A stretch of 64,000 nt of DNA from Dudresnaya verticillata (taxonomy: Eukaryota): assembly GCA_977862235.1 (NCBI GenBank), contig OZ374565.1, positions 868,001-932,000 on the forward strand. Direction: 5' to 3'. Position 1 is the first letter of the stretch; each line of letters begins with the position of its first letter. The translations under genes were made by a program, and so were the position numbers. The notes under the pieces are model-generated. The model had not been told where the DNA came from and made no database searches. It worked only from the letters and a program-made list of their open reading frames with translations. Positions 388 to 40,045 of this stretch are shown in pieces.

Positions 388-879
388 TGTGGTATAAAGA
401 ATGTCCACGGAGACGCGGGGAAGTCTCGCACTGTAAGGGATGGCCTCGGAGCCGAACGTGTGGCCTCGTAGCCTAAGGGAAAACGAAGAAAGGAAAAGGG
501 TTGTAGCGTGGTAGAGCGAGGCGAACGACGCGAAGGACCACGGTGTCAACGTATTCGTGAGCGGAAGGGAGAACTCGAGCAATCGATGACCGGGGACGAC
601 TCCGGGGGCGCAAGGCTATCGAAAGAGAGGCTCGACCGTATCCGCGGTCACGAACACGAAGATACCGAACTCGAAGAAACAAGTGTTTACCGAAGACTCC
701 GAGGTCCGGGCGCTAGTCGCTTACCGGAAACCGTCGAGGGTAGTGCTAGACGACTGGCGAAGTACTACTACTACGTGAGCACGAATACACGTCAACACGG
801 GAGACGGTTCGTACTCGAAGGATTCGTAACGGCCTCGATTCCAGTGAACAGTCGTCTCACGTATGGTGGCGTTTACGAG

Positions 880-1716
880 TGTGGCATAGCTGTAAGACCA
901 GCTGTGCCACGCACGCGCAGCTGTAAGACCAACTGCGCCACGTGTTCACCGCTGTGCGCACGCTGTCAGCCGGTGGTGCCGAAGCCCCGCTGAAACTGTA
1001 AGGAATTCACTGCGGCGCCCGCGCGTGCACGTGTACGCGTGTGACACTGAAACTCCCACGTAATTTCTACGTTTATTTTTGTGTAGTGTACAGCACCGTC
1101 TAGTTTAAGCGGCGGTCGAACGCCCTGCTGTCCTGCGCGCCGTGCGCACGCACTCCGACGTAGAGCCGTTGAGAGCGTGACACGCGCGCGCGTACTCCGG
1201 CGTCGAGCCGCTGAGTACCTGTGCACCGTTTCGACCACGCGCGCCCCCGGGTTACCGTTACCCGTACGCGGCGACGCGTGTCGGGGCGCGCCGGCGCACC
1301 TCCCGAGTTGGTGCCGCCGCAGGCCCTGTAGTCTATTTAGTAGTCGCCCCTCTGGACTTGAGTAAACAAGGCAACCCAGCCTACACCAGACTTTCCCCTT
1401 TCTGCTTTGGGTTTCTTTCCCAGTCCTTCGCCCTACGGCTTCCCTCTTTCCCTAGCCGCCTAGGCTTTCCTTTTCCTTTCCCTACCGTCGGCTTCGTGCC
1501 GCCCCACGACGGGGACGCAGGGATCCGGCCGCTTCCGCCCGCGTACGGTCCGCCCTGTGCGCGCTCAGGCTTCGATGCCGTAGAGCCGCGACCGTCGACG
1601 GCGCGCGCGGCCGACACCACGGCTCTACCACCACCACTACCACCCTTCGACGGGTCTGGCTGCGACTACGAGATCAGCCGCGCTAGACGTCAGTTCGACC
1701 TGACGTCTATGCCACA
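880..1716. mobile_element. Solo LTR (837 bp) inserted in the Gypsy-A 3' LTR
   Basis: Perfect 10-bp terminal inverted repeat TGTGGCATAG...CTATGCCACA. Perfect 5-bp TSD ACGAG (875-879 / 1717-1721). No coding capacity. Confidence 0.9.
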
Positions 1717-1983
1717 ACGAGGTGCGCCAGCAATGCATGCGGAGGTGCATGCGCGTCGTGGGCCTCGGAGCCGTTCGAGCAGGAAACAACGGGAAACAAG
1801 GAGGTGTCAGCGATTTCATGTTCGGTGCGCACGGTAATGCGAATGCCATCGTGGCGCGGTCACAGTATTTGCAATGTAATACGTTTGCCATCGTGGCGTG
1901 CGCGTTCATGGAATCACTTCGAACTTCGTATTTCTCGATTATTTTCACGAAGACCACGAAGTAGTTTTGCGCGCAGCGTCAAT

Positions 1984-4900
1984 CCCCATTGCTAGATGGT
2001 GATGATTTGGCTGTTCTCCAGAACCATAATTATTTTTCGAGAATAAATTGAACTCGTGATCCGGCGGCGACGCCCCTTGACCCCCGAAGGAGAATCGTCA
2101 CCGCTCCAACAAGAACTGCTTGATTTTGGAGAGTCTCGAAGCACAAACTGCTCACCTTCCGCGCCTTTCCCTTGTGCAAACACCGCCCACACACGAGCCC
2201 AACGTCAGCGTATAACCGCCCTCGCCGACCGTACAAAGAATTGGATCCAGGATGTCTGCACCGCTGTGGAAAGTGCGGCATCCTGAACCAAAACCTGCCA
2301 GCCCCAGCATCGTCTGAAGACGCAATGGCCCGCCACCAGAATGGCACAAATTAAGCGAGTGTCATCCGCGCCGCCAGATGTTGATCATGACATGCCGACT
2401 GAGCGTATTGCTCGATCTCTTTTTGGCGTTTTTGGCAGTGATTATGAAGCGGACGACCCGATTTGCGTCGAGGACCCAGGACAGTCTCCTGTGGGAGCAA
2501 ACTTTGATCGCGAGGGCATGGCAGTACTCAACACAACAACGACACCGATCCAGCGGGAAACCACGACAATCCACAAACAGTTCCGGGCGCGTGGAACGCT
2601 CCGATTTCGCAATGGAGAGACGATGTGCAGCAGGATCCACGGACGCCTCTCACGGGGACTACATTTGGTGCCCCGCAGCAGGGGGCCCAAATTCCTAACC
2701 CAACGACTGTTTGCCTACTTGATGCGGTAAACAACGACTCCTTGGACCCCTCTGATATAACATTTTCTTTATCGCAAGAAAGAAGGCAGCTTAATGACAG
2801 TGGAGATGACAGCATGTCGAGAAATTATTCTAATCCGGTAGGTGTTACAAGTGAGGAGCGTACATATCTACTTACGTTGTCCAATGGAATTCGAGAGGAG
2901 GTAGTGAACTCAGCATCGAGCGAGGCACTTTGTGAGGATATCTTTTCAATGCTGTTCACAGACTGTGACATTGAGCGGACATCTACACCGTGGGAAACAG
3001 GGGCACAGGTCGCCGGTGATGACGATGACGACTACGTTGAGGTAGAGGAGGAGATGGAAACGCGAACTGCTGCCCAACCAGCTAGACTGTCACAATGGTC
3101 GTACGATGATGCCTTTTGTACCGTTAGTGCTGCGTTTGATGATGTCGACAGTACGTTAGAGAAGCGATTTCTCAAAGAGGCGAATGGGATGCTGTCCCGC
3201 GTCCTGCAGGATGTTCAACAGCTCCGAGTGGAGCGAAAGTCGGCACAGAAGAACTCGGACGTCTCGAACGTGGTGTCAGATATCTTTGATGACTCATTTA
3301 CAAGACTTGAGTTCCTGCGCTGTTTTGTTACAGGTGCCCTGTTAGAAAAGCTGAAGCCTCACGTCAATCGCAGTCTAATCGCTCGGAAAAAAGATCCAAC
3401 GACCGGACAGGGGCTCTTGGCAATACTGGTCTTGCATATCCTGTGCGCCTCATACGATCAAAGTCCCACGATCGTATGCGATCCCGTTGAGAACAAAATT
3501 TTCTTCCAGATGGGCATTGAAGCCCAGCGCTATCATGAAGCCTGGTCTGCTCTCTCAGGGAGCGAAAAGAGAAGGGCGACAGTAATATATTCCAGTACGG
3601 AGTGGTGCAGAACCGCAGATTCAAATACGTCGCTAATCAACTTAGTTGAATGGGAGGTCGCCAACATTAACCGCCATCTGTACGTCCCAGGGGCCAGAAT
3701 CCTTTCTTTGGACGATGACCATTTGAGAATGGCATCTCGATCGGTTCTAACTCTAACACGTTTGCGACAGTACAACAATCCCAGAAAAGGCTTGGGTCCA
3801 GTCGGTAATGCACTTTGCAGTGCTCTCAATCCCGTCTTCCTGTCTTGTCACTTTACGCGATGCGGGGAGAAGCTTGTGCATACATGGGAGAGAGTGGTTT
3901 GTCTACGGCAGGGCGTTGCGCATGAAGGCGCGCTTAAACCAATGTCAGATGCTGTCTTCGCCGCCGATCGCGGCTACAACACCAAGGAGACCACATTGTT
4001 CATTTCTGAAAGGCTCGTTTCGACATTTCTTGGGACACATAAGCGCGACACATGGTACCCGTACGTGTTTGGGGACGGAGCTATTACAAAGAGGCATACA
4101 GGTCTGGTGATTTCCCAGAAGGGCTGCAGGGCAGTATATAACGCACGATGGGATCATGAAGGCTGTAAGAGACGTGGGCGGGAAGTAATTGCAAGTCTGT
4201 ATAGAGAAAGCCGCAGCGGACGTATTTCAGTATTGACTCATAACCATGACGTTATGTTTCCTCCCAGAAGATTCACAATTGTTCCACCCGAATGGTTCAG
4301 GAATCAGTTAAACGCAGTTGAGCTAGAAGAATTGTAGACAGTCTATATTGCTGTCCAAAAAGAAGGCCGGAGCCCCGGGGACGAGATAGCATCACATCAG
4401 CGAATGGTTAACGAGTTTCTTTCTCGTGTTAGGATGTTGACCTACTATCAGTCTGAGGACCCTCTTTGGTTTTTTTACGAGCTTTCCGTTTTACATCTCG
4501 CACATCGCACTCATTCCATTCAGCTTTCGCCTCGGATTTTGATGTGCACGTGCAGAGAATCTCGTTCCTGCTGAAGGGTAAGAGCCTGAGCACCACGGCT
4601 GCAGCACTTCCCGATGACGCCTCCGCGCTCTCAGATCAAATGAAGGTGAAGTGGGATGCTGTTATATATGTTATAGCTGTCGGGATGCGCAAAAGAGCGG
4701 CGTTAACTGTCTCGAATAGGATGCGAACTAAGGAGCATTTGCTGTCTTATACGGCGTCGCGACTTGGGCGTTTCACAATTAGTGAGCTAAAGTCTTTCCT
4801 GAACACGTTCTCAAGGCTACCTGTCGGACGAAAAACGAAAGCAGAATACGTCATGGCGGTTGTATTGCTTCAGGAAAACTTGAGGGCCACGGACAGTGCA

Positions 4901-6916
4901 GAGAGTAGTGAAGCTGCTGCTGGTGCACAAGAAAATAATGCTGAACAGCCCCATGGTATCGCTGCTTATACGACATTGCTCAAAACTTTGCAGAGTGCGT
5001 CATTGAGCGCCTGGGTCATGAAACCCTTTGTCTCAACCGAAGGCATGAAAGAAGGGAGCCGCAATGAAGAGAACGTTTTACATGCGCTACCCACGTTTTT
5101 CGAACATCGCGTAGGGATGCTACCAAAGGATTGGGGTACTGCAGAGTATTGTCTGGACCCCAACGGCAAGATATCAGTCAAGCTAATTCGGGCAGTGGGT
5201 CTGGTAGCCAGTCGTGGTACTGGGATTCTAGCGGACAGTGCAGAGGGATTGGCTGTTCTGACAAACACGGACTCACGCGTTATCGAGGAAACAATATTGG
5301 CGGCGATTGAAGTCAAAACAATGCCATCACTAAGACCTGCTTACAAAGCCGAGAAGATCGGTGAGGAGCATTCTGAAGCAGTTGTTGTGTCGGATGTTGG
5401 AATTTCAAAGGCTAGCGACGAGATGTTTAGAAAGCTGGTTCCAACTACTCCCTGCCATCTACAGTGCCTGCATCATGCCGCGGTTTACAACACCAGATGG
5501 GTTTTTTCGTGGTTGCGCGTGGCACAAACGGGGGAGCGGTGGAATAATTTACACATGCCTCATAGACTTTACGGAGACTCTACCAGAGTCGTGCAAGTAC
5601 TCACTTGACTGTATTTGGGGAGCAGGATTCCAATGGATTGGAAAGGGACACAAGGTGCATTCCGAGGGAATACGATGGCATATTGCAAAAACTCTCATGT
5701 CTCAGATTTATCCTCTTTTGCCTCGTACTACGGCTCGAGCCGAGCGGTGAATAGCCTCGTTCTGCAGACAGGCGAACCGCTTCCGCCTGCGGGTATGGTC
5801 CGCCTGACATCGCCTGTATGTTGGCACCACCTTAAAGGCGGTGTTGATATAATCTCGAGATACTTAAAGAATTTGGCTCGGTCTAACATGAGTGAAAGTC
5901 CAGTGGTCAGTATTGTGGCTTGTTTGTTGGTTCTTCAAGTGCATAATGCCGCCGTGCTTTATCGACTATATAAGGCAAGAAACTTGGGTCGTCTGCCAAG
6001 GACAGCGAGTGAAACCGGCGGAAAGGGCTATAAGTACAGCAGGCACAAAATGACGGAGTTCGAGACTTTCGGACGGTACGCTAGAGCGTTGTCGGAGGAA
6101 TGGTTACTTAAAAGTAACAGAGCCATGACACCTATGGGGAGCGGTCGAGTAAGGAAAACTACACCACTCCGCATGAAGCCATGGTTTTCCCGGGGTATTA
6201 TCGACAAGTATAACAGAGGGGTTGTCAAGAAACGGCGTCTTCGCGCACTTGTAAATCTCAGCACAAGCGTGCTATTGTGTGATGTGCACGTGGCGGCTAT
6301 ACAGCGATGTAGAAGGGGTGAAGCACAGCAAAGTTAAAGGAGCGAGGCAGGTGCGTTGGTGTGGAACCTGTAGGGACGCAATATGCAAAACGTGTTGGGA
6401 CCGTTGGAATAGCACTGCAGTGCTACAACGCGCTTGTCAGTCCGAAGCCGAGAAGCTGGCGTTTGACCGAGAAGTCAGGAACAAGAAGCGTCAAAAGAGA
6501 AACTGACAGAGGTAGGTACTCGGACGGGTGAAATAGTTGGAGTTCCCGAAGAGTACTGGACGATTGTCCAACAGGCGTCATCCGGTGTTTGCGGGATCCA
6601 TTTTAGTAGTACAGTGTGCCTTTAGTGAACAGTGCATGCACCATCTCTCCAAACAAAGTGAATGTCACACGAATTTCGTGAAGCTTTCATAAACTGTTGG
6701 ACCGATTTTTCCTTCGATTGGTCCACCTCAGAATTTTCAAACCTTTAGCGCTCCAAGTGTTTCTATGTGGCAGTTGAAAGGCACATGACTGGAGCCGTAT
6801 AACTCGCCCGGTTTGAATGAGGCCACCTGTTAATGCATCATATGTAACTGAGCGAAGCAATACAAATAAGACCCTTTCGGTCCTATCTTTTAACATCACG
6901 AAAACGGCCACGTGGG
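1984..6916 (+). mobile_element. Divergent piggyBac-like DNA transposon (~4.9 kb)
   Basis: Boundaries are fixed by the empty site in the sister LTR (agcgt-CTAT-agcaca). The insert starts CCC, ends GGG and is flanked by CAAT (1980-1983) / CTAT (6917-6920), a 4-bp duplication with one mismatch. It encodes a DDD transposase. Confidence 0.82.
2341..6506 (+). pseudogene. piggyBac-like DDD transposase with internal YqaJ/lambda-exonuclease-like domain, SAP motif and C-terminal Cys-rich domain (one stop, several frameshifts)
   Basis: Stitched from ORFs 2625-4337, 4466-5608, 5361-5750, 5615-6337 and 6279-6506. Transposase motifs: LSLDDD (D at 3711), AADRGY (D at 3966), WHHLKGGVD (D at 5846). Nuclease motifs: LTYYQSEDPLWF/LRAFRFTS, MKEGSRNE, ADSAEG, IEVK, LQCLHH. 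SAP-like FTISELKSFL..RLPVGRKTKAEYV. C-terminal CVMC...CGTCRDAICKTCW. Start codon uncertain (2341 or 2625). Confidence 0.8.
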
Positions 6917-6926
6917 CTATACCATA

Positions 6927-6943
6927 CGTCCCCCTCCTCAAGA
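6927..6943 (-). other. Polypurine tract of Gypsy-A
   Basis: Minus strand TCTTGAGGAGGGGGACG immediately precedes the 3' LTR. Confidence 0.85.
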
Positions 6944-7541
6944 GCGGAGGTCCCGGTCGCGTGTTACGAATCACGAATTGGCGTGGCCCGGTTTCCCTCG
7001 GAGGAGCGCGTGTGGAGCCATCCGACCGGCGGCGCGGTGATGCATCCAGCTAACGTTGTCGCGCAGAGGTGCCTCGGGGCTCAAGAATTTGAATTCGGAT
7101 TACGTGTGCGATGGCGCCTTCGTATTGGCTGATCACGGAGATATTTCGTATACGTAGAACGGGCTAGGGATTTGGCGCCGTCCGCCGACGCGTGCGCGCG
7201 CGGATCACGGAGATGGGGTGCGAACCGCGTGGGGTATTTCAACTTCGTCTTGCACTGGGTCCGAGCTCCTTTCTTCTTCTGTCATCGCTCTCACATACAA
7301 CTCGCTGCAGCGCCTTGGCTTTCGGTCTTCGCGGTCCCGTCTGCTTCTCCGTGTGCGTCTTTCCATCCGCGTGCGCCCTTCTCCACATCGTTCATTCCGC
7401 TCCGTGGCGCTCGTGTTGCTGCTCCGTTGGTCTCGGTGGTTTGCGGTGGTCGGTTGTGGGTCTCGGGTCTCGGTGTTGGGGCACGTGCTGCTGGTCCTCC
7501 ATGGGTTGCGTTGAGGTCGAATTCGTACCGCGGGTCCTTCG

Positions 7542-9525
7542 ATGGCGGACAAGGGTCACGGCAAGCGAACTGAGTCCCACGAAGAGCACGTCAATGCTAC
7601 TCCTCGTCGCCTCGAGGGTGAGCTCGCTGCTGCCGCGGAACGCGTGGCTGCGGCGCCTATGCAGGATGTTGCGGTGCCTCCGAAGGCTTCGCGTCTTTCA
7701 TCGAATGTCGCTGGTCTTTCGGTTGACTACGGTCAATACATGCCACGGACTCTCGCGATTCCGCACGTCGTGAACATCGGGGTTTCGGGGCCTCCGGGTG
7801 CGGCTGACCTCGGTAGTCCGTACGTAAGTTTGGGCGGATCGAATCCGCAATTCGTAAATTGTGGTTGGCAACCGAGTGCTTCGTTGGGTCCTCCGAGATT
7901 CGGAAAAAGGGTTGAGAGTGCTCCGAGGCTTCCGGCTGCGCAGTTGTACTTCGCGTGGTATGGGTTGGCGGTCTCCGGAGGTACTCACGAAGAGGTCGTT
8001 GCTTACGATGGCCGTGTTTGTCCGGATCTCGGTCGCTTTCGTGCGCTCTGCGAGGGTCACGATTATAATGGAGTTGGTGTCTTTCACGTATTGTGGCCCC
8101 GTGGCCCCGTGTATCCGACTCCGATGGGCCTTCCGTGTGACGTCTCCTACGTGGCCACGGTCGACGAGGTTGCTTACGTAGATGCGTGTGCTCGTGTGCT
8201 CCTGGTACCGTGTTCGTGTATCTCCGTGGATTATCCTGTTGTCGCAGTGGCCCGTTTTCGCGTCTTCCCGGAGTCCGAGTGCGCCACGGGGAACGTGTGG
8301 CGCCACGTAGATTCGATATCACACATCCTTCGTGTTCACATCGGTCCCGGAGACCGGGATCTGTTTCGCGGAGTGGGCACGATGCCAGACCGAGTGGGTA
8401 CGAATGCGCGTTTCTACGACCGAGTGCCCCTGAGCATATTTAAGAGTTCGTATTGGCTCGACAGTTTCGGTATTCGCGCCCCGCGGGCTTGGTCGTTCTA
8501 CCTCCGAGGGTGATTCGGTATTTCTGCCTCATCGTAGATACGTATCCGGAGCCAGAGAGGAAGTGCTTCGAACGTTTCCGTGACTCTGAGTATCGCTTCG
8601 AGCTGGGCCACGCATTGATATCCGTTTGCGCTAGTCGAAGCCATTCTCCGAAGATGGCGGTTATCCGGATCTTCCGCTCCGAGGCTCGGATCGTACGACG
8701 TTGTTTTCGAAGATGCTGGCGATTTCCATCGGGGCAGCCGATCGGAGGGAGCTCCAGTCGACTCGGCGCGATTTCCCGACGGGACAGTGGTCCCAAGTGG
8801 TCGTGGGATCCGGAGCCGGGTTCAATTGGAGTCACAACCGACCCTCACGAGGGGGACGCGGTCCGCGAGTCGATCCGTTTCCGCATCTGAGTGCCGTGGT
8901 TCGTGCCATCGGAGGGGATTTTGGTCCGTTGCCACGTGTTCCGCGTTTCGTAGCTCCGACTTCTTCGCCGTCAATGACTCTGCGGTCAACGCTTGGCACC
9001 GGGGCCGTTACATTGGTGCCCAGCGCTTCGCGTTCCTAGGTCGCGAGTCTCGAGGTGCTCTGCCCCACGAATATTCGTACTCTCGACTCCGTGAGTGATG
9101 CGTGTTGCGAAGCGGGCATCTCCCCCGATGGGACTCTTCGGCAGCTGATAGACGACATCGGGGGAAGCTTCCTTCGAGCGGTTACGGAGGTGAGGCGCTT
9201 TCGTAGGCAGCTTTGTGATCGGGATGCGGAGAGAGCGGACTTTCGTCATCGTATTCGGGACCTCGAGTTGAGCGGTAAGCGTCGGAGCGAAGGTTATGGT
9301 TATCCGAGTTACGACGCTTCACGTTACGGGTCTGGCTCCAGAGGCCCTTCGGGCTTCGGACCCAGCGGTGGCGATGGCTACGATGGTCACCGCGGACAAT
9401 CGCAGACATCGGATCCGAACGCCCCGAACTTGCTTCGAGTGACTCGTGACAAAAACGGAAGCGATCCTCGTGATAACCCCCTTACGACTCCGCGAATCGG
9501 TATGATCGCTCGTAGTTGTACGTAG
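7542..9525 (+). pseudogene. Antisense accessory ORF of Gypsy-A (frameshifted; unknown function)
   Basis: Consecutive ORFs 7542-8513, 8453-8890 and 9055-9525 lie between integrase and 3' LTR, opposite to gag-pol. They share motifs with the 955-aa antisense ORF of Gypsy-B. Confidence 0.65.
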
Positions 9526-10789
9526 CGGTAGAACCGAGTCTTTTTCTTTTAGCTTCGTAGCTGCGTTGTTTCTTCTTTTCGGTATCGAACTCCTTGTTCT
9601 CGGAGCTCAAGGTGGGGGGGCTCGGTCTCGTGGTATCGTCTCGAGTATAACGTCTTCTCTTTCTCGACTCTTCTTTTGCCTCGTAGCTGTAGGCACGTAG
9701 TTGTTAGCAGCGTAGCTCTAGCCTCGTAGCTTCTCAGAAACGAGCTTCGTGCTCAACTGTGCAAATTGAGACTGGTGTTGATTACGAATAGAATTACGCG
9801 TGTTTCCTTCGAGGAGTCGAGTCAACGAGACTTCGTAAATCTGTGTGCACGGCCCTCTCCTCAAGAAGAACGCGTCCACGCCGACGTTATGGGGGAAATA
9901 CGTGGATACGGAGAGCTGCGTGGGTGTTTCGATGATCGCGCTGAGCAAGTCGCGTGAGCTCCGGGGCTTTCCTGAGCGAACTGCATCGGTTGCGCATCGG
10001 GGCGCAGGCGAACGAGACTGCGGGCCGAAAAAGGAGGACTCTGTGGTTTTTCCGACGGCTCGTTATGCAGCGGGAAACAGGGGGCTCCGTGGCTCCGGCA
10101 AGGGGGTGAGGCGGCATGTGCGCTGCTCCGAGGCAAGCGATCGAGCGAAGTTGCCGTGATGCGCTGGTTGCGACTGCGAAGTGCGTCTTGCGGGTGGCAT
10201 CGGCCTCGAAGTATGACATGACGACAGGCGCGAATGACAAGTTGAGTATAGTGCGCCTTGTCCGTCCGTCGCGGAGTCAGACCCTGTGATGCGAGTGCCG
10301 CGGTGCAACCGTGTGCGTGTGTGAGCCGGTGTCGAATATCACGAAACTTGCTGTGTCCACCACCACAGTGGTGGGCGCGCCCATCGCGATACTGCTCGAC
10401 TGCGTGAGAAGCGACCTCGTGGTGGCATCGTGGCGAACGAATTCGAACATGCGGAGAAGGCGTCGTGTTGCCGCCGAGGGCTGCGTTGTCGTACGTCGCC
10501 CGCAACCGAAATTGCACAGCGTGAGATGCGGGGTGACGCCCATCTGCTCCGAGGCAACCGTATGCGTCGGGGCAGTTGTAGTGCGCGAAGAAGGCGCGTT
10601 GCGAAGTACGGCGACCAAAATCACGAGGTGGTGCCAGGAGGGGCACGTAGCGGCACTGTGCAAACGTATGTCCCGGAGCCATCGGAATGCGCACTATCGC
10701 AGTCAGCACGTGTGCAAGAACGTAGTGGGGCGCCGGGGCCGTTCGTATGATGAGCTTCGTGTGCCGCGCAACTCGAGTGGGCGTAGGCG

Positions 10790-13700
10790 TTATTCATGCT
10801 GCGGAGTGCGGATCACGAATTCGGAGCTACGGAACCATTCGGGGTCCCAATCGGAGAGCCATTCGTGGGCGGGTAGCACGGGATCACGCGGGTCCGCTTG
10901 TATTCGAAGCCTTGCGAAGTAGCGCGAAACGAGTTCTTCGGGCACTTGCGTACGAGGTTCCCACGTAGGCGTCGCGTAGCCGTCCTACTTGATACGAAAT
11001 ACGACGTTGCCGTCGTCTTCGGTCACGTGATCGAGGATCCGATCGACAACGTATTCGGGGCCTTCGGTGACCTTCTCCGCGATATCTTTGGGTCGCGTTA
11101 TTGATGGTCTCGAATTCGATGGCGGGGACGCGTAGATACAGCGGTCCGCGGAGACACGTTCCACGAGGCCCTTACGGTCGATCACGAGTGTGCGCGTATC
11201 ATTGAATAGAACCTTATACGGCCCATCCGCGGGGATTTAAACTTCGGAAGTTTCGTTTTCCCATCATGGGTATCGAGGAAAACGTAGTCTCCGGGTTTGA
11301 CGCGGCTCTTCCTGCGGCGGATGCGCTTATCGAAATCGCGTTTGTAGCGGTTTTGCAAGCGTTGTAACGAAGTGCGTGCGGAGTTGATTGCGACATCGAG
11401 TCGCTTAATTAAATCGTTGCGAATGTCCTCCGTGGGTTTCGGTCGGTGCTTCCGGGAGCGATGATTGACCGTGAATTCGGGCGGCGGTCGCGATAAAACG
11501 ACATTGAACGTAATTGTCTTCGTAGACCGATGAACGTGGCAATTGTACGAATACGTTAACGCGGAGACATGGCGATCCCAATCGTCTTGATGGTCGTTCA
11601 AGTAGTTACGAAGCATCGTGAGGATAGTCCGGTTTTATCGTTCTGTTTGTCCATTCGTTTGAGGATGATACGGGGAGGTGAACACGTTCGATAACCCGAG
11701 TAGTCGGCAGACGCCCTGAAAGAACTTCGAAGTAAGTTCTTTTCAGTTATCCGAGAGCACCGAGGCTGGCGGTCCGTACTTGAAGATCCAAAGTTCGTAA
11801 AACGCAACTGCGACGTGATACGCTGTTATGACTCGTAATGTGGCCACCTGGGTCACCTTCGGAAATAGATCCGTAATCACGAGTATGAACTTGCTTCCGG
11901 ATTTCGTTCGGGGCAACGGGCCTAAGATGTCAATCGCGACCGATTCGAGGGGGCGCATGGCGGGGAAGAGCCTCAATCGTTGAAGGTTTCTTCGTAAACG
12001 AATTCGATTTCTCGTGCAGTGCTTGCAATTTCGAACCGTGGATGCGATGTCGGCAGCCATGTAAGGACAGTAGTTCGTTTCACGTAGTGAGTAGAACATG
12101 AAATTCTGCCCCGGGTGGCCAGCGAGTAACGAATGATGCACTAGGGTAAGTATCCGGCGTCGGAGCGTTTCGGGCAATACGATTTGCGTTAAATTCGTAA
12201 TTATCGGATGCGTTCTTCGCAGGGGACCGTCTGCATCTTCGTGAAAGAGACTATGTTTCGTTTTGGATTGTCGTGCTTGCACCGTTTGGCAGAACGAATA
12301 AATACACTGTCCCTCGAGGATCTCAGATACGGTAATCGGTGCGGGTAGGTCTACGCGTTTGACATCGGTTAGTTCACGCGGTTCTTCGTTAGGATCGATT
12401 CGATAAAGGTCAGACAGATCATCGTCATCGATATCGTCCCATAAATCGTAGTCATCGTAGACATTGTTTTGTCCTGCGTATTCATCACGTAGTGCTTCGT
12501 CGTGTGCGTGGGCGCAACATTCGTGGCGTTGAGGATGGTGAGCTTCGTAATCTTTCGGGACCTCCGTGGATCTTTGCGTAGTGCCTTCTCGAATTATCCG
12601 TTTTGCGGGCGTAGTCGTCCGCGTGAAGAGGTGGCGAATCGCGTTGACTTTCGATTGACGTTTGCGAGATCGCGTAGTGATGAGAACCGGGTCTCTTGCG
12701 TTTTCGATAGTTTTTTTATGTCGTTTCGTAAACGTGCTTCGTTCTTTGCTGCGTTTTGATCCGAGTCAAACGTAGGCACTTCGTCTTCGATTGCGGGTTA
12801 TTCGTGATGCGGGAGTAGCAACCTCGAGAGGGCATCGGGAATCTGGTGGACGCGACCGGGGCGATACAAGATTTCGAAGTCGAATTCAGCTAATCGCAGC
12901 CGCCCTCGCGTGAGTCGCGCGGACGAATCGGTGAGAGAAAGAATCCAGCGGAGCGCGTTGTGGTCCGTACGTACGGTGAGCAGGGTCCCTTCGATATACG
13001 GACTAAAGAGGTAACCGCCCTTACGACTACGTACCATTCGCGCTCGGTTGCGGAGTAGTTCTTCTCGGCATCTTTTAACGAATAAGACCAGTATCCCAGC
13101 GGTTGGAACTCTTATTTATCTTGCTTCTGTAGAAACGCGCACCCGAGGTGATACGCAGACGCGTCGGTATCGATGATGTAACGTTTCCCGAGTTGCGGTA
13201 GCCGGACTATCGGCGGTGACATGAGCTTCCTTTTGAGCGTTTCGAATGCGGTAAACTGATCTTCCTTGGGATTCTCGTAATCAGGATCCACGTCCTTTCG
13301 TGTAATGTCCGTAAACCGTCGCGCAATTTTCGCGAAGTCTTTCACGAATCTTTGGTATACGTTACACGCGCCGAGGAACAACCGGACTTGGGTGAGTGTC
13401 TTTGAGAACTTCTTGTATCGGAATGCCTCGGAGCTCTTCTCGGCCATACTAAGCTTCCCCGGGGAAATTACGTGTCCGAGATAGTCGACTCGTTTTAGGA
13501 AGAGGAAGCACTTCTTCATCTTGAGCGAAACCCCGGAGTGACGAAGTAGCGCGAGGACTTGATCGAGATGCGCGATGTGTTCACGAATATTCGCGGAGAA
13601 AACGATCATGTCATCGAGGTAAACGAGGCGGCACTGCCAACGGACTCCGGATAGAATGATATCGAGTGCAAGGTGAAACGTAGCGGGCGTGTTTTCAAAC

Positions 13701-15300
13701 CGAAGGGCACACGAAGATAACGATAAGTTCTGAGAAATGAAGTAAACGTGTTTTGTCGCGGTCTTCCGGGGCAACCGGAATCTGCCAGTACCCGCTGCTA
13801 CAATCGAGTGTCGAGAAAATCGAAGCGTCTCCGAGGGAATCGATACAGTCTTCCATCCGGGGAAGCGGGTACGCGTCCGATAGTGTCTTCGTATTTGGTC
13901 TTCGGTAATCCACGCAAAAACGAAGTGTTCCGGCTTTCTTCGGTGCGAGTACTACCGGAGACGCTCACTCCGAGGTGGCTGGTTCGATTACTCCTGCTTT
14001 GGCGTACTGTCGATTTCGTTGCGGACGATTTCTCTTGTTACGGGCCCTTGGCGATAGGGCATCGAACGAATAGGTCAAGTTCCGGGTTGTACATCGATAC
14101 GATGCTCCGTGGCTGCGATCGTTCCGAGGTCTTCGTTCCAGACCGATTCGTGCTTTCGTAGCGTCTCGAGTACCTCATTTTGCGTAGTTTCGTCGGGTAT
14201 CTTCAAAAAGTATACGCGTTCTTCCCAATCGCGAGAACTCGAATTGGCTTCGGTAGTCGCGGTCGCAGCGCCTTTCTTGAGCTGTTTTCCTTCGTGGATA
14301 CGGATTCTTCCGGTGAAATCGAGTCGTCGTGCTGGCGTAGCGTAGAAATGTTGAGCACCTTGGCAAACGAATCCGTGACTTCGCGATCGGTTGTCAAAAT
14401 CGCGAGCGGGTTTCGAGATGCGTATCCGATGACGGTTCCCTTTCGTAGAGATCGAGGCTTATCCGTGAAGTTCGCCATCAACACCGAAAGCTCGCAATTC
14501 GGACTGATATCGTGTATCCCGTTCGTGAACCATACTCCGTTTCGGTGTTGTAACGAAGGTTTCGGTTCGATGTGAATCAGCCTGGGCGCTTCCAAGGTCA
14601 CGGTGACTAGCTTCTGCGAATACCTCGGGATAGTGAGTCGGCGGTTCAAACGAATGGTGCGGGGGTCTCGGTCCCAATCGTGCATCTCGCGTTGATGTCG
14701 CTTCGATAGCGTTTTCCCGAATTTCTGCTTCGGATTTTTCGAATTAATAGCGAGCGGAGCCGATCCAGAAATACGGTTGGTAATCAGGCTCGTGCCTGCC
14801 CGCTTCGTATGGAGCCTCCGTGGGCTGAGCTCGATGCTTCATAAATGCACTTTCATCCACGAAGTTCCAAGGAGAACGTCGACTGCGAGTTTTTCCGCAA
14901 CCACGAAGGGTACGCGGTATCGAACGTTCCCAAGGCGGACTGTCAGGTAAACGATACCATCTAGTCGCAACCGGGAGCGATCAGCGGACGTGAGCCTCGG
15001 AGCTGGTTGCAATCGTATGCGGCTTCATTACGGAGGCATTGAGGCCAATGGATCCGGTCACGAGGAAGATCTCCGATGTCATCAAGCAAATTGTATCCCT
15101 CGGTGTAACTTCGGGTTCGATTTACGAAATCGGTATCTTCTTCGAATTGTTTTCGGACGAAGCGGCTTTCGCAAGGACTCGACATCGCGTTCGGTCTCTT
15201 TGTCGTGCAGCGCGCTTCTTTCACATCGCAGCGGCTCTTGGAATCTGAATACGCGGAGTGTCTCGGGGAACGGATTCAGACGAAGTACGTGACACAACGG
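10790..15300 (-). pseudogene. pol: Gypsy-A pol (protease, RT, RNase H, integrase, chromodomain), many frameshifts
   Basis: RT: DAYPLPRMEDCIDSLG, LDCSSGYWQI, VYLDD. RNase H: DTDASAYHLG, RTDHNAL. Integrase: HHSLLAGHPG..CKHC, VAIDILGP, SDN. Chromodomain: EYVVDRILDH..IK*DGYATPTWEP. Confidence 0.93.
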
Positions 15301-15312
15301 GTGTCTTCGCCT

Positions 15313-17789
15313 TTACTGGTTTTTCGAATTCGAACTAGAATCCGAATCCAGAGGGTGTGTGTCCGAAGGCGTGGTTGATCGCTCACCTCTTCTGTTATTC
15401 CCGGAGTCGTCGTAAGCCTCCGAGGATAGGTTCGGGTGACTCGGCCCAATCGCGTCAACGTTTTCACGGACTGCGAGAACCGGTTGGCGGCCCGGAGCCT
15501 GCGCGTGTCTCGGATTGCGGAGGACGGTTGGCGGTCCTCGACGCTCAAAGCTGACTTGACGCCAGGCCCGGTACCTCGGGTAGCGCGTATCGCCTTGACG
15601 AAGGTCTCGGTTTACGCGATTGTCACGCGATCCTCGGGAGTTCTGTCCACGGTGACCTCGATTGTCCACGGATTCGAACGAATTCCCTCTAGCGGCACCG
15701 CGATTCACCAAGTTATTACGAGTGTACGGTCTCGTCTCGAGTTGATAGAGTTACCTCTGGTACGCACAGTAGAGTTGTTGCTCCTTCGTGAGATACGGAC
15801 ACAAATACATCAGGTCACCGATTTCGCGACAGAACCAACACGGCCACGCATCCTGGTTCTTCGGGATCATCGAACGCGCCATCTCGATTTGCTCCGGGGT
15901 CATCGGGGGACACGCGCGGGTACGAAACGCTCGACGCGACTCGTAAGATCTAATGTATCATCTACGGAGACCATTGTCGAAGTAGTCGGTGTAGCGGAAG
16001 TGGACCCGGGTCCTGAACGAATCATCATCACGGCCATTTGCGGATCTTCGTTTATCGGGTACTCGAATTCACTTCCGGGGTATCGTAAGCTTCGGTAAGC
16101 ATCGTGCGTCCGGGCGCTCGACGACTCTTCGGGTACGTAGCAGACGCTCGGTTCTTCGAATCACGCGATTCTTGGGCCGCGGTGTCACGATGTTCATGAG
16201 CTTCGCTGGAATGTCGTGTCTTCGGCTTGCGCGATTCGTTGTATGCTCATGAATTTCTTTTGCTCGGACAACGGTAAACAGAGAACCTGGTGCGCCCGAT
16301 AGGATACTTAGTAGGTAGTACTCCACGAATAAATTGGTGCGTTAACGAAGAGTCATCGTAGACACCTGAGCGGACATCCGCGTAGGCTTGTAGACGAGTC
16401 GGGAATTCCATCTCGGTTTCTTCGGACTTCTGCTTCGCGGTAATCACGCGATCGTGGGCGTCAGCGATTACGTCTTCTGAGAAATCGTTGGAGCAATACG
16501 TTCACGATAGCGGACCAGCAAACCGGGTTGCCAGTACGAACGCCTCCGAAGGCATAGTGTTGATACACCTTGAGCGCGGTCTCGTCGAGGAACCACGAGA
16601 TCGTACGAACTGCTGCTCCTTCGGTGAGCCCGACTCCGTTCAGCGCTTGTCGAATATCACGAAGAAATGAGAGAACCTCAATTGGATCGCGTCCCGTAAA
16701 CTTCTCGAGTCTCGGCATCATCGAACGCATGCGCGAAACGGTTTTCGACGTGTTACCTCGGAATACTTCGTGTTGGTTATCCCGAGGTGACGAATTCGTG
16801 AGTCGATACGATCGATAGCTTACGGCCCGCGCGAATTCGGGGATGAGCGTCGGTATCGGTTCGACGCCCGGCTCGAGCGATCCCCAGGGCCAGAACGATG
16901 ACACGGGTCCCGCGAGCGATAACGAATTTTCGATTACGGGTCCTCCGGGGGACATCGGTGGTTGAAGTGAATCTCGTAATACTGCCGGGTTGATACGGGG
17001 GTTGTCGGAGGCATCCGTTGCCTGATGCGATAAAGAGTGCGAAGACTGATTCGGATACGTGTTTTTCGGTAACGTAGATTGGGCACCCGGGCCTTGCACG
17101 GGTTCAACTAGCGGAGAATTGCGGGGATCAGGACGGGCTTCGGGACGATCTTCGCGACTTCGAGTCTTTTCCTTCGGTAACGCGGCGGACGCGATTTCAC
17201 GAATAGCGTTCAACTGTTCCTCCGAGAATGCGTGCGAGCTGCGAACGGGAAGCGAGTGACTCTCCTTGCCTACGGGGGCGGATACGTTGCGTTCGAGCAC
17301 GAGAAACCGGTTGCTGACTTTCGAGACGAGATCCCGGAGACTCTCGAGTGAGTCTTCGATCCTACGGGCCTTGCCAGCGCGGAAATGGTCGAACTCTGCG
17401 TGAACTCGATTATGCGTATTACGAATTGAGAGCTGCGTGATACGGTACGCAGTGGAAAGCGCATCAATGACCTCTTCGTAGAGTAAACGTAGTTCTGCAC
17501 CGGAGACTTCATTCATCGATAAGAGTCGATCGAAGGTATCCGAGGGAACGATTTCTAATGGAGTGTACGTGTACGAAAGGTCCGACTGGCTACCGTGAGC
17601 CTGCGAACGCGAGTCTGTGCGAAGATCGGGTACCGTTATACGTGAAGCGCGAGTGCGAGAAAACGGTTCTCGGTCACTCGCGTTCGAGTCGAATAACGGG
17701 AGCTCCGGAATCGGTACGTCATCGGGTTTCGGTACCGGCGAATCGGGACGACTCGGAGCATGAGACATCGTGTCTCGGATAGAAACCAA
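15313..17789 (-). pseudogene. gag: Gypsy-A gag (frameshifted after 16461)
   Basis: 442-aa ORF just downstream of the PBS. FARAVSYRSYRL and FTGRDPIEVLSFL match Gypsy-B gag FVKALDFRTYRL and FNGTDPITVLGFL. It ends at a slippery site/stop at 15313. Confidence 0.85.
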
Positions 17790-17820
17790 TTACGAATAAA
17801 TGCGAAACTTCGGAACCACG

Positions 17821-17838
17821 TTCTAGGTCGGGAGACCA
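17821..17838 (-). other. Primer-binding site of Gypsy-A (probably tRNA-Tyr)
   Basis: Minus strand TGGTCTCCCGACCTAGAA, 1 nt from the 5' LTR and identical to the Gypsy-B PBS. Confidence 0.85.
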
Positions 17839-17839
17839 G

Positions 17840-18585
17840 TGTGGTATAACGAAGTCCACGGTGACGCGGGGAAGTCTCGCACTGTAAGGAATGGCCTCGA
17901 AGCCTAACGTGTGGCCTCGTAGCCTAAGGGAAAACGAAGAAAGGAAAAAGGGTTGTAGCGTGGTAGAGCGAGGCCACAGATGCGAAGGACCACGGTGTCA
18001 ACGTATTTGTGCGCGGAAGGGAGAACTCGAACAATCGATCATCGGGGACGACTCCGGGTGCGCGGGGCTATCGAAAGCGAGGCTCGACCGTATCCGCTGT
18101 CACGAACACGAAGAAACCGAAATCGAAGAAAAAGGCCTTTACCGAAGACTCTGAGTTCCGGGCGCTAGTCGCTTACTGGAAACCCTCGGAGGCCGTGTAC
18201 TACTACTATGCGTGAGCAAGAATAAACATCAACACGGGAGACGGTTCATACTCGAATGATTCGTAACGGCCTCGATGCCAGCAAACGGCCGTCTCACATA
18301 TGGTGGCGTTTACGAGGTGCGTCAGCAATGCATACGGAGGTGCATGCGCGTCGTGGGAATCGGAGCCGTTCGAGCAGGAAACAACAGGAAAACACGGAGG
18401 TGTCAGAGATTTCGTATTCTGTGCGCACTGCAATGCGAATGCCATCGTGGCGCGCGCACAGTATGCGCACTGTAATGCGTTTGCCATCGTGGCATGCGGG
18501 TTCACGGAGTCACGTCGAAATCCGTACTTCTGGATTATTTTCACGAAGAGCACGGAGTCGTTTTGCGCACAGCGTCTATAGCACA
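17840..18585 (-). repeat. 5' LTR of Gypsy-A (746 bp)
   Basis: TGTGGTATA...TATAGCACA termini; homologous to the split LTR at 388-6926. Confidence 0.92.
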
Positions 18586-18776
18586 AGTCCGTCCCGCCAC
18601 TTGTGCCACCCCCTTGTATGTTGCATACCAATATCCGTCTCGGTTAGCCGCTCGCTGTTCTCCCGTAACGGTGCGAACGGCTCTACCACCCCGTGGAGGT
18701 AGTATCGCTCTCGTCCCGTGAAGGAAGGCAAGGCCAGTTCCCCTTTACGGAGTTCTTGACTTTTCACTATACCACA
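18586..18776. repeat. Right part of LTR family X
   Basis: Reverse complement of 26164-~26355; ends ...cactataccaCA. Confidence 0.85.
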
Positions 18777-22889: not shown

Positions 22890-25129
22890 CCAAGCCCTCT
22901 AAGTGGAACCACTCAGTGGAATGGGGTACGTTCCACTTATTGAGAGGTTTCAGTTGGCTGGAGGCATACAGTACAAGTGTGTCACATTTATTTGAAGAAT
23001 TGATCAACGCGGGTTTGTCGCATGCGCAGTCCTTTCTCGACACGTAGCTCGCCCTGTAGATTCCTCAGGCCTCTGAACAACTTGTTATCTTCCCCTTGAC
23101 GAGCACCGACAATGCACTTCACACGAGCGATGGCAGCGAATTGCTCCTGTAATGAACCAAGGTGGGTAGGCTCGGTTGGTTCCTCAACGCTGATCTCATC
23201 GGTAGCACGTCCCCCCGAACCCCTGCATTGACCACTGAGTCCACCATGTCCATCTCAGTTGTAACCTGTGTGACCTCCATCTCGTCTTCCCAGCACAAAA
23301 GATCCGATATAGGAATGCGCCTGTGCTCGGGCACTACGGAAGAAATTGAAGAATTAACATCCTCCGCCTCGAAGTTCGGCTCTTCTGTGCACTGTACAGC
23401 TCCCTCCATTGTGCTAGTTACATTCGATCCCATCAAAACAGTTGTACGCCAACAATTCGAAATTGTTTCGGCCGTGATTTCCTTCCATACATCCGTAAGC
23501 CACCTCATTGCAGAAAGTATGTCCACTTTGTAAATTTCCCCAGCCCCGATGTCTGCTAAATCTACGGCGTATTCCATTTGACGCCGTCTATAGCGGAGTT
23601 TCATTGCTGCAATAATTCCGGCGTCGAGAGGCTGCAGTCGACTTGTTGTGTTGGGAGGAAGGAATTGCACAGAAAAGTTCTGTAGTGACGGCAGAGAATC
23701 AATGGAACCATGAGCAGAGCAATTGTCCATCAAGAGCAGGACGTGTCTACTCGGAGTTTTTCGAACGTGGGCGTCAAATGCGAACAACCAATCAGTAAAA
23801 AGCACAGATGTCATCCATGCCTTCTTGTTGCTCTTGTAGCTCAGGCCCAACTCTTCTGGTTTTTTTCTTTTTGAAACATCTCGGTGACGTTGCAGTACCA
23901 ATAAGGAACAATGGCACCTTTTCTGAGCCATCTGCGTTACAGCAGCACATAAACGTGAACCTAGACTTTTGTTTCTTGCGGCCAGAGACAGAGCAGCTGG
24001 CTATGGTTCTGTCTGGTGCCATTTTCCAAAACAATCCCGACTCATCGCAGTTGAATACATCTTTTCGACTGTATTGTCTGACTTTGTCCTGCAGTGATGG
24101 GAGGTCTCTCGATACCGTGTCCTCGGATACGTCACCACTTTCGCCATGCAGAAGAAAAGAACGTAGTTTCCAACGTTGTTTAAAGCGTGCTATCCATCCA
24201 TCAAAGAACTTCATATTTTTCTTCTGGCCTTCTGTGACTTGTTCATTTGCCAAAGAAGCTAAACGCCGCGCTTTCTCCTGAATCATCACACCCGAAATGC
24301 AGCGCCTGTTGTGACTCATGTCACAAATCCAGGCATAGATGGAGTTGTCAAGCTCTGTATGTCGTGGGCTAGAGCAATGGAACATGTTTTCTGAAGTCGA
24401 TTCGGTGTCTTGCGGGGCAGAGGCGTTGATAATCCGTGACATAATGGCTTTCCCCGGCAATTTCCGCAGCCCGTACTGGACTTGGCCCACTCCGCCAGGG
24501 CCGCATGTGTTGCTTTGCGGCCATCACTCAGGCGAGCGTTACGTTCCTTCACAATGCCGCGCTTTTGCGCTAGGGACAGACTTTGAAGTGGCATGGAGGC
24601 CTCGGTTGATTATGGGGACGAGGATCGCTCGCAAGGAATGGGGAGAAGTAAAGCATGCGGACACTTTGCTTTGAGGCTCTATCCATTGTGGGATTTTATC
24701 ACAAGCAGCCCTCATGAACGTAACCGTCAAGCAGGACCAACTTGGTCCGTTACGACACTTCATTGTGTTGCGTTGCACCCACTTAGTCCGTTACGATACT
24801 TCGTTGTGTTGCGTTGAATGCAAGACAACGAAGTGTCGTAAGACGTTACGACGCAACACAACGACGTGCCGTGAGACGTTACGACGCAGCACATCTTAGT
24901 GTCGTAACGTCTCTGAAGGCTGCTTACAGTCTAAGAAAAGACTTTTATGTGTAATGTATGAGTATTTAGACTGAACTGAAGTCACCAAAACATGGTTCCA
25001 GTTAAGCAGAAATGGAACTTTCTTCTTTTTTAATTAAAATTTCGCATCCACGACCATGGTGGATTGGAATTGGTTCCAGTTACACGTAGGTTCCACTTGC
25101 AGCGGGTTCCACTTAGAGGGCTTTGACTG
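22890..25129 (-). mobile_element. pogo/Tigger-family DNA transposon
   Basis: TIRs: AAGCCCTCTAAGTGGAACC at 22892 and GGTTCCACTTAGAGGGCTTTGACTG ending at 25129. TA on both sides. The outer bases of the left TIR are slightly deleted. Confidence 0.9.
23119..24594 (-). pseudogene. pogo/Tigger (CENP-B-like, DDE_1) transposase, frameshifted
   Basis: ORFs 24316-24594, 23792-24490 and 23119-23931. HTH/CENP-B-type GWIARFKQRW, LHGESG. Catalytic motifs VFNCDESGLFW, LLLMDNCSAH, LQPLDAGII (33 residues between D2 and D3). Confidence 0.92.
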
Positions 25130-26163: not shown

Positions 26164-26920
26164 TGTGCTGTAGTGAAAACCCACGAACTCCGTAACGGAC
26201 AGCTGGCCTAACTTTCCTACACGGGACGAGAGCGACACTACCTCCACGGGGTGGTAGAGCAGTTCGCACCGAGACGGGAGAACAGCGAGCGGCTAACCGA
26301 AACGGGTATTGGGAAGCAACAGACAAGGGGGTGGCACAAGTGCCGGGACGGACTCCGTAACGGTGGTGGTGGTAGACCGCAACGGGCTTGGCGCGGGGAA
26401 AACCGTAAAGGAAAGAGCTACAGTGGGATTGAGGCTCAAGGGTTGCTTGCCCGTTTACCTTAGGAGTCGCTGCGGTGCCGCTCTGATATACAAGTCAGGG
26501 TGGCACCGAGCGGTCCGGTCCGTGGGGGCCAGACCCTAGTGGTCTGGTCCTATGGTGGAATCGGCCCTGCTGGTCCCAATCTCCGACACGGACATGCGCA
26601 GCATTCTCATTGACTGGCGCGCTACTCTACACACTGTACACAGACTCACTAAAAATAAAGAACAAATACTACAAATACTCCGCTACGGATGGTGCGCTCC
26701 ACTTACAGTACAGCGATCCAGAACAGTGCACAGTAATGCGCACACACCCGACACGGTTACAAGTTGCCAGATAATCAGCGTGGCGTATTGCCACATCACC
26801 CGTTACGGTTAGCTTGCCGTCGGCGTGCCGCATGCGCGGGGCCTGTGCCCGCCTTACAGCTTGATGCGAGTGGGCGTCTTACACCTTAATGCGCACACAT
26901 GACTTACAGTGCGCCAGCAC
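26164..26920. mobile_element. Solo LTR of family X (right end approximate)
   Basis: Inverted, uninterrupted copy of 1-387 + 18586-18776. Starts TGTGCTG; a possible end CAGCAC lies at 26920. No clear TSD. Confidence 0.8.
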
Positions 26921-28823: not shown

Positions 28824-29498
28824 TGTGGTGAAGCGGCCGTTGCGGAGTGCGGACGACGGTTGAACCGACCCGCGCCCGGCGCACTGGTGAGCTGGCGCCA
28901 AAAGCCGAAGCGGAGTGCAGTGACACAGTAGCACTGTATGCCCTGCTGGAGTCTGCGCGCACCACCAATAGGAGTCGAGTAGTTGATTTATTTGTAATTA
29001 GGTAATTATAATCATGCTGTACAGTACGTAGTGTCAGCCGGCCAATAAGAATGCCGAGCATGTCCGCAACGGTGACCGGGACCAGTAGGGCCGGACCCAC
29101 CTGGGGGACCAGACCCATTGGGGTCTGGCCCACACGGACCGGACCGCGGGGCGTATCTCCCAGTATATTAATGGGTGGCCACCGCGAGTCCTACAGTAAA
29201 CGGGTACGCAACCCTGGGCAAAGTGACTTACCCTAAGCCTTACCCTCATACTCCTTTACGGTTTCCCCTCGCCAGCCCCGTGCACGGATTCCTCCTACCT
29301 CCGTCCCGGTGTAGCTGCCCTGGCACTGTACCGTCCCCCTTGTCTGTTGCGTCCCTTTACTCCTTACAGGTGTTGCCGCTCGAGGTACTCCCTTCGGTCT
29401 ACGAACTAAGCTCTACCACCCCGGTGCCGTGTGAGATCACTCCTTATTGGGATTGTCTGATCAGCTCTCCTTACAGGTGTGCCTTTCACTTCACCACA
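28824..29498 (+). repeat. 5' LTR of Gypsy-B
   Basis: TGTGGTGAAG...CTTCACCACA 10-bp inverted termini; direct repeat of 40046-40720. Confidence 0.97.
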
Positions 29499-29504
29499 TC
29501 TTTT

Positions 29505-29522
29505 TGGTCTCCCGACCTAGAA
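29505..29522 (+). other. Primer-binding site of Gypsy-B (probably tRNA-Tyr)
   Basis: TGGTCTCCCGACCTAGAA, 6 nt after the LTR. Confidence 0.88.
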
Positions 29523-29663
29523 AGGCAGTCAAGGTAGAAGAATCTCCGTTGGACTCCGCTTCGGTAGGAGATCAGCTTTGTGACAACTCCGTATTAGTGT
29601 AAAGGCAGGACAAGGCAAAACACTCGTTGACTCCATTTTGGTAACCTAAGAGTAGAAGAACAC

Positions 29664-36779: not shown

Positions 36780-36814
36780 CCAGTCGCTACTCACCCACGC
36801 AGTAGGGGTTTTGG

Positions 36815-36973
36815 AAAAATCGGGCATGACCCGTGGACTCCGTGTTCACAGAACCCTTGCTCAAGGGGCTCTACTCCCTATTGGTGACTTGGCGTTGATA
36901 CAAAATGGGCATGACCTCTGGACTCTGGAACCACAGAACCCTTGCCCAAGAGGCTCTACTCCATATTGGTGAA
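36815..36973. repeat. Imperfect 85-bp tandem duplication between pol and the antisense ORF
   Basis: gggcatgacc..tggactc..cacagaacccttgc.caag.ggctctactcc.tattggtga starts at 36822 and at 36907. Confidence 0.85.
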
Positions 36974-37162
36974 TCGCCGGCGAGCGAGCAACCACTTCTG
37001 GTGTGAGATGGTCGTCAACCGGCCGCAAAGCCTTGTGTGGGGTAGGGTAGCCTCTCCACTTCAAGACTCACTCCACAGTGGTGTTATTCCACTTCCCCTC
37101 CGCCAGCGAAAGGGGGGCTCACACAAATCACAAGATTTTATTGACAAGTGGCATTTCTACGC

Positions 37163-40043: not shown

Positions 40044-40045
40044 TC

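Follow-up and report, generated by a model that had tools for sequence, protein, structure and literature searches.

The closest described systems are the antisense 3′ ORFs of Gypsy retrotransposons, which have been reported, with unknown function, in Grande (gene23), RIRE2, Retand, PvRetro13 and the fungal element Boty (PMC7264820). The GENE23 protein of maize Grande is nuclear (PMC7264820). According to the available text of PMC11963269, 97% of Retand clusters carry TRP28; the word 'alga' is absent from that text. The available part of a survey covering green plants only, in which an extra ORF had to span at least 250 codons, sorts the extra ORFs of gypsy elements into 314 groups, mostly from non-chromoviruses (PMC6317226). 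Accessory genes of red-algal DNA transposons are treated in a preprint, the accessible portion of which discusses Plavaka PAG1–3 and the VANDAL anti-silencing proteins and describes PAG1 as having no known domain (bioRxiv 10.1101/2025.02.11.637652). The accessible parts of PMC6431247 and PMC4455052 hold nothing on an ORF of this kind. Our literature search found no description of antisense ORFs in red-algal LTR elements; Repbase (1181 Chondrus families, according to the available part of PMC4455052) and the supplements of a Bostrychia preprint lay outside its scope and may note such ORFs.

The window analysed here is a stretch of 64,000 nucleotides from Dudresnaya verticillata (contig OZ374565.1, positions 868,001 to 932,000; coordinates below are those of the window). 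Compared with itself, it reveals two LTR elements, Gypsy-A and Gypsy-B, both of them chromodomain-bearing Ty3/gypsy elements. We consider it more probable than not that 7542–9525 is a decayed antisense gene of the older element, Gypsy-A, which likely belongs, at a great distance, to the family of the 955-aa protein encoded by Gypsy-B, a predicted nuclear helper that binds nucleic acids or chromatin.

Gypsy-A spans 388–18585 on the minus strand and is flanked by AGCCC and AGTCC. Its 5′ LTR (17840–18585) is followed by a PBS of 16 nt (17823–17838) identical to that of Gypsy-B (~29506–29521), by an open gag frame (16461–17768) homologous to Gypsy-B gag, and by a broken pol with a chromodomain (10910–15024), in which PR, RT, RH and IN are recognized by Pfam and by tblastn with the pol pieces of Gypsy-B. 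The chromodomain (11083–10910) contains one stop. The PPT (~6941–6930) and the initial 10 nt of the 3′ LTR lie at 6917–6941, and the remainder of this LTR (1717–1983 and 388–879, also on the minus strand) is split by two later insertions. The LTR pieces are about 90% identical (429/473 and 233/264). Gypsy-A is an old element, and this copy is dead.

The larger insertion in the 3′ LTR (1984–6916, 4.9 kb) has CCC...GGG-like ends and is likely a decayed DNA transposon; its long ORFs (2508–4337, 4457–5608 and 5609–6337) have no Pfam match above noise. The second one (880–1716) has TG...CA-like ends and is possibly a solo LTR. Gypsy-A itself is nested within the LTR of a third element (34–387 and 18586–18776), an uninterrupted relative of which lies at 26164–26703 and is ~70% like the Gypsy-B LTR. 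An ORF for a DDE_1 transposase (PF03184, E=7.6e-36) is found at 23119–24000. A second PPT-like motif, CCTCTCCTCAAG (plus strand, ~9853–9864), lies between the end of the antisense gene and the Gypsy-A chromodomain and is a possible central PPT.

Gypsy-B (28824–40720, plus strand) is young, with LTRs identical at 668/676 positions and a target site duplication AAGTG; reverse transcriptase, RNase H, integrase and chromodomain are all found by Pfam. By features and their order (gag, PR-RT-RH-IN, a C-terminal chromodomain, and LTRs with PBS, PPT and TSD) both elements are of the chromovirus type of Ty3/gypsy. They share the PBS and have similar PPTs. Their gag products align with a score of 114, reached by 0/500 shuffles, and tblastn finds pol pieces 28–64% identical, those of RT being 33–64% identical. 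The two families have no LTR similarity in blastn, and the preliminary description had seen none by eye. The antisense gene of Gypsy-B is a single intact ORF of 955 aa on the minus strand (37163–40030), with its ATG at a distance of 3 nt from the PPT; that of Gypsy-A starts ~600 nt inward from the PPT. Two tandem copies of 78 nt (36817–36979, 81% identical) separate the Gypsy-B chromodomain from the end of the antisense ORF and recall the tandem arrays in the pol-3′LTR regions of Retand elements.

The preliminary description had proposed that a gene in the same position and orientation as that of Gypsy-B is present in Gypsy-A. This is borne out: 7542–9525 is on the plus strand between the Gypsy-A chromodomain and the PPT/3′ LTR, antisense to gag-pol, so that position and orientation both match. 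Reading across 7542–9522 (1981 nt) takes a minimum of three stops or frame changes. Two sets of Markov simulations gave means of 9.7 and 7.0 disruptions, with as few as three in 0/500 and 3/500 runs; Gypsy-A's own gag-pol has 3–7 in comparison windows, and three non-genic windows have 11–12. The longest frame, of 323 codons, is matched by 2/500 and 13/500 simulations. Codon-position bias is pronounced in the first piece (P=3.8e-8) and in the last (P=5.1e-5): first positions are rich in G and third positions poor in A. Given the low disruption count and this bias, we are confident that the plus-strand gene is real and decayed. The last 300 nt of its 600-nt leader are A-poor, and its 3′ flank is T-rich.

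The gene product is not one ORF; it comes in at least three pieces, with a frame change near 8484 and a break near 9037–9040. Piece 1 (7542–8513, plus strand; 323 codons from the ATG at 7542) comprises a low-complexity N-terminus followed by what is presumably the N-terminal half of the core. It contains D.GRF.A (8019), YPTPMGLPCDVSYV (8112–8153), CDVSYVATVDEVAY (8136–8177) and RFYDRVP (8409), and departs from the family-like frame at ~8484. Piece 2 (8483–8640, plus strand; 3′ end uncertain) reads LVVLPPRVIRYF and then DSEYRF in a second frame. The middle part (8640–9039, plus strand) has two long open frames, 8619–9098 and 8641–9036; were the Gypsy-A gene a full homolog, the second core half would be expected here. 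The last piece (9040–9525, plus strand), in a third frame, includes a C..AG..P motif, SDACCEAGISPDG (9094–9132), VRRFRRQLCDR (9190–9222), a charged heptad-like helix, GKRRSE (9274) and a Gly/Ser-rich tail, ends with a stop at 9525 and is without the terminal KRPR tail. The peptides that had been quoted as shared with Gypsy-B all exist; one of them was joined across the frame change near 8484, with RFYDRVP and YWLDSFGIRAP (8451–8483) in one frame and AGLVVLPPRVIRYF (8483–8524) in another.

The Gypsy-B protein is one member of an old and conserved family. An exhaustive phmmer search recovers 95 homologs, counted as clusters at 50% identity, at E<=1e-3 (26 at <=1e-10); they are 25–47% identical to the query and match it nearly always over residues ~200–630. 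Among 30 clusters looked up, the named homologs come from a single one and from Gracilariopsis chorda, as four proteins and five accessions in a 90% cluster, a multiplicity that fits a repeated element; the other clusters consist of ENA, Logan or JGI records. The Gracilariopsis proteins point to a red alga, likely a florideophyte, as the host. The 955-aa protein has a disordered N-terminus, a folded core (~aa 235–600), a linker, a C-terminal helix block (860–899) and a PPAKRPR tail (946). No Pfam family covers the core of this family, and neither the Gypsy-A pieces nor the Gypsy-B protein has a Pfam match. The core, of ~360 aa, has no conserved Cys cluster; conservation reaches 75% or more in 34 columns, a good number of which are Arg, Glu, Trp, Tyr or Pro. 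Its N-terminal half contains, in this order, the motifs D..RF, cD..v...eE..Y, R..lY..vP..W and L.VPtP...Y, and its second half an E-W helix, D.R, GrlF.LP and dW..pgF..yd. A second block of 40 residues near the C-terminus, with C..aG..P and a helix, is found in 17/106 proteins. Eight members (P0028, P0030, P0055, P0066, P0075, P0083, P0087 and P0090) form a subfamily in which ~40 residues of the second core half are missing, some of them with an insertion in the N-terminal half, and in P0018 and P0057 (889 and 1162 aa) the C-terminal coiled coils are very long.

The AlphaFold2 model of the Gypsy-B core, built from 71 sequences, is mostly helical, with a mean pLDDT of 83.5 and a pTM of 0.83. Foldseek finds nothing at E<=1e-3 in PDB and BFVD, and the best hit among 48,161 chains in a VIA search has a Z of 3.7; the 430-residue model exceeds the size above which single-domain matches can be missed. 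The predicted fold is unlike any structure searched, which is a missing match and not a proof of a new fold. The Gypsy-B core has no neighbours in the Atlas. Searches beyond the elements were also negative: Gypsy-B pol has no match in viral contigs, P0030 none in prokaryote genomes and piece 1 none in metagenome contigs. An integrase pattern common to both elements is found in three contigs of 1–3 kb, too short and none with a family match, and in no viral contig.

How far the Gypsy-A gene resembles this family differs with the method of comparison. Pairwise alignment of the 7542–9525 product with the 955-aa protein, which had been suggested as a check, is at chance level: the best local score is 50, against shuffle means of 44–45, and is reached by 39/300 and 59/300 shuffles for two X-joined versions of the gene, and the best alignment falls in the low-complexity N-termini. 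Among the tblastn matches listed for the Gypsy-B protein, those at the Gypsy-A gene are only low-complexity noise, and against each of the 106 family members the best E-value is 0.17. Word-indexed homolog searches returned nothing for the Gypsy-B core or for piece 1 and one protein for alignment A1; the blank for piece 1 says little, since this method missed the 95 homologs found by phmmer. The PDB sequence search with alignment A1 gave a best E of 0.032.

Profiles pick up a weak but repeatable signal in piece 1. It scores 2.9–5.3 bits on the four HMMs of the family that were used, including one built without Gypsy-B; these values are reached by 0–3/2000 global and 0–1/2000 local shuffles and by 0/1000 with a rebuilt HMM. 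Among 1562 frames of the window it ranks third on three HMMs and eighth on one, and an unrelated frame (4153–3977, minus strand) outranks it on every HMM. Comparison of piece 1 with the family by hhalign gives P=0.0023 over 63 columns, with a probability of just 12.7%. The stretch matched in these tests is the first of the motifs proposed earlier and extends past it; within it, DEVAY of Gypsy-A fits the family consensus eEvaY better than does EEGY of Gypsy-B. MAFFT placed the motifs of piece 1 in register unaided. In piece 2, LVVLPPRVIRYF matches the family block L.VPtPpv.aY; nowhere else in the region does this block match as well (per-position p=8e-6).

Order and spacing of the motifs add to this picture. 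When 12 blocks were selected automatically from the profile without Gypsy-B, three best regional matches and one second-best match followed the family order, spaced by 42/87/29 codons in Gypsy-A versus 49/95/20 in Gypsy-B; the other eight have no colinear match in the Gypsy-A gene, and LVVLPP is a match for a later family block as well. In six out of six settings the block-chain score of the Gypsy-A gene is higher than that of any of the 114 remaining segments of the window. It is reached or exceeded by 0–1/200 Markov controls and by 0–6/200 controls with shuffled codons (Gumbel P 6e-4 to 2e-2), with settings chosen after the blocks had been seen. Over the local profile and motif-chain tests together, P ranges from about 0.0005 to 0.02. 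Whole-domain alignment tolerant of frameshifts gives z ~2 (P 0.06–0.09), and several unrelated window segments score higher.

The remainder of the gene is silent. Invariant R310 and the E.R.R motif are absent, and no Gypsy-A frame has a signal for the second half of the core, the stretch that is broken. Piece 2 by itself is matched on the core profile by 316/1000 shuffles; when the last piece and the two middle frames are included, the counts run from 88 to 630/1000. The idea, formed by eye, that the frame from 8641 carries the last core motif of the family found no support, as 630/1000 shuffles do as well. The last piece has a C-terminal look-alike at a fitting distance, 187 codons from the P...Y motif versus 191–429 in 11 family members and so at the short end; against the C-terminal profile of the family 393/1000 shuffles are nonetheless as good. 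The profile of the short subfamily (8 members) has no match in the Gypsy-A gene. The colinear similarity claimed in the preliminary description has a signal for motifs 1 and 2, in profile tests only, and no support for motif 3; the profile comparison it suggested is weakly positive for the N-terminal half and yields nothing in the C-terminal half or the tail.

Structure prediction hints in the same direction for a short segment. In an AlphaFold2 model of piece 1 made with the family alignment, residues 31–100 have pLDDT values of 77–91 and the helix-helix-strand-helix order of the Gypsy-B model, in a prediction that is steered by that alignment and uncontrolled; from residue 103 onward pLDDT is <50. 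The model matches nothing in BFVD. The Atlas places piece 1 nearest to capsid clusters of ssDNA viruses at 0.78–0.83, below 0.9. We treat this apparent kinship as noise; a third of shuffled proteins reach 0.8.

We conclude that the Gypsy-A gene is probably homologous to the Gypsy-B family, with the relationship detectable only over the N-terminal half of the core. This estimate combines the weak profile signal with shared position and parentage as a prior. The chief alternative is that the antisense gene of Gypsy-A is real and was acquired independently, its motif matches being due to chance helped by a similar layout. The weak statistics between the two genes speak for it, as do the lack of support in the C-terminal half, the richness of piece 1 in alternating Val/Ile together with its capsid-like Atlas neighbours, and the 314 unrelated groups formed by extra ORFs of green-plant Ty3/gypsy elements in the available part of PMC6317226. 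Against it stand the four motifs in family order and spacing, the persistence of the signal when Gypsy-B is left out of the profile, and a Gypsy-A model that matches no viral structure. We consider independent gain unlikely, though it deserves the most weight of the competing accounts of the gene's origin. The antisense third gene is present in Gypsy-B, is likely in Gypsy-A, and we infer it for the 95 homologs. The earlier view of 'a conserved third gene in these retrotransposons' gains a real antisense gene in Gypsy-A and is founded on two elements in the window. That of an old accessory gene family of unknown fold holds for the Gypsy-B protein, with its 95 diverged homologs and a predicted fold without match in PDB or BFVD; membership of Gypsy-A is likely.

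A nuclear accessory role involving nucleic-acid binding is our tentative proposal for the mechanism, somewhat short of an even bet. Antisense transcription of the gene would come from the 3′ LTR or from the leader inside it, and the protein may use its basic tail for nuclear entry and its C-terminal helix for assembly. The core, rich in Arg and Trp (40 and 16 residues, respectively, among 366 aa in Gypsy-B), would then bind the element's DNA or RNA or chromatin, and such binding could favour expression or propagation of the element. A basic cluster is located within the last 30 aa of 23/38 long members, a count that includes near-duplicates and has no control, and we take these clusters to resemble nuclear-import signals. 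The nuclear GENE23 protein of maize Grande (PMC7264820) and the absence of any strongly hydrophobic segment from the Gypsy-B core also speak for such a role.

The family could instead be a cytoplasmic or particle-associated factor (an RNA chaperone, or one acting in packaging or in passage from cell to cell via pit connections), or else an enzyme, and not a nuclear regulator. No fold match ties it to DNA binding, its conserved H/D/E/R residues could form an active site, and 15/38 long members are without the basic tail. The basic tails in most long members argue the other way, and so does the absence of a signal- or Env-like hydrophobic segment in the Gypsy-B protein, whose maximal Kyte-Doolittle value is 1.45 (17/106 members reach 1.9). 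We judge this alternative improbable to about the same degree as independent gain. An Env role is unlikely given the antisense orientation and the lack of a hydrophobic segment in the Gypsy-B protein.

The damaged middle of the Gypsy-A gene bears on two further accounts. The middle frames have no codon periodicity (P 0.30–0.62). A first codon model for frame calling was dropped, with 2/8 training sets out of frame, and a second, trained on piece 1, did not settle the frame of the middle. Splicing might explain part of the damage, ~8640–9040 being or holding an intron and the Gypsy-A protein having no second core half; the lack of periodicity and profile signal there would agree with this. The stretch is however about the length that the family needs, the Gypsy-B gene is a single ORF, and Gypsy-A is old and equally broken in pol, so that we regard splicing as quite improbable. 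Least probable of all is that 7542–9525 is not a gene, its frames arising from GC-rich, A-poor sequence or only antisense RNA mattering: the opposite strand has a 260-codon frame (reached by 18/500 and 64/500 simulations), the middle 400 nt are non-periodic and no relative of the Gypsy-A gene was found in the word-indexed and metagenome-contig searches, but the disruption count, the periodicity and a profile signal in the same frame speak against it.

Compared with known systems, the Gypsy-A gene has the features of an aORF-3R: it is antisense between pol and the 3′ LTR and has a frame of at least 250 codons (piece 1 has 323, with periodicity), the gene as a whole being broken. It resembles the aORF-3R/eORF-3′R genes of maize Grande (gene23), rice RIRE2, Silene Retand and bean PvRetro13, as presented in PMC7264820 and in the available text of PMC11963269 and PMC6317226, in position, orientation, ORF length and suspected nuclear role. 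Grande, RIRE2 and Retand, all from flowering plants, count as non-chromovirus (Retand/Tat) elements, often with Transposase_28 (PF04195), whereas both elements described here bear chromodomains and have a likely red-algal host. Ogre elements, a related lineage, have the plant mobile domain (PF10536). The Gypsy-A pieces and the Gypsy-B protein have no Pfam match, and neither PF04195 nor PF10536 is among the matches listed for 71 family members (seven families at E<=0.01). The antisense ORF of Boty (Botrytis cinerea and Sclerotinia; cited in PMC7264820) is alike in being an additional antisense gene of a Gypsy element from outside the plants; this comparison is by description, and for the Gypsy-B family it involves the ~360-aa core without a Cys cluster. 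Env-like third ORFs of Athila, SIRE and errantiviruses likewise lie between pol and the 3′ LTR, but they are in sense orientation, whereas the gene described here is antisense and, in Gypsy-B, without a transmembrane-like segment.

Plavaka PAG1–3, compared by description from the available text, are similar as conserved accessory genes of red algae and differ in belonging to DNA transposons. The VANDAL protein, as described in the same accessible text, serves as a model: a protein encoded by a transposon that acts on the sequence of that transposon. No methylase or SET match was found in the Gypsy-A pieces, the Gypsy-B protein or the 71 family members. By analogy with the VANDAL accessory protein, red-algal chromoviruses might share an ancestral antisense gene for a nuclear protein of new fold, with copies barely alignable and an anti-silencing, self-binding function. 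We rate this extended scenario as speculative and doubtful; if true, it would help to explain the expansion of LTR elements in seaweed genomes.

If the Gypsy-A gene does belong to the family, the gene is older than the divergence of the two element families, which are no more than 33–64% identical in their RT pieces, and has evolved faster than Gag. Proteins engaged in conflict with the host often evolve fast. The dead Gypsy-A copy adds weak but probably correct evidence of the age of the Gypsy-B family, and the intact Gypsy-B gene is the better object of study. The Gypsy-B family itself appears to be undescribed, and the Gypsy-A case appears to follow the known kind of antisense 3′ ORF of Gypsy elements in plants and fungi. 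In plants, such additional ORFs are for the most part confined to single lineages and have no known function. The Gypsy-B protein defines a widespread family with a well-predicted core that matches none of the structures searched, and offers a tractable target for studying the role of these genes.
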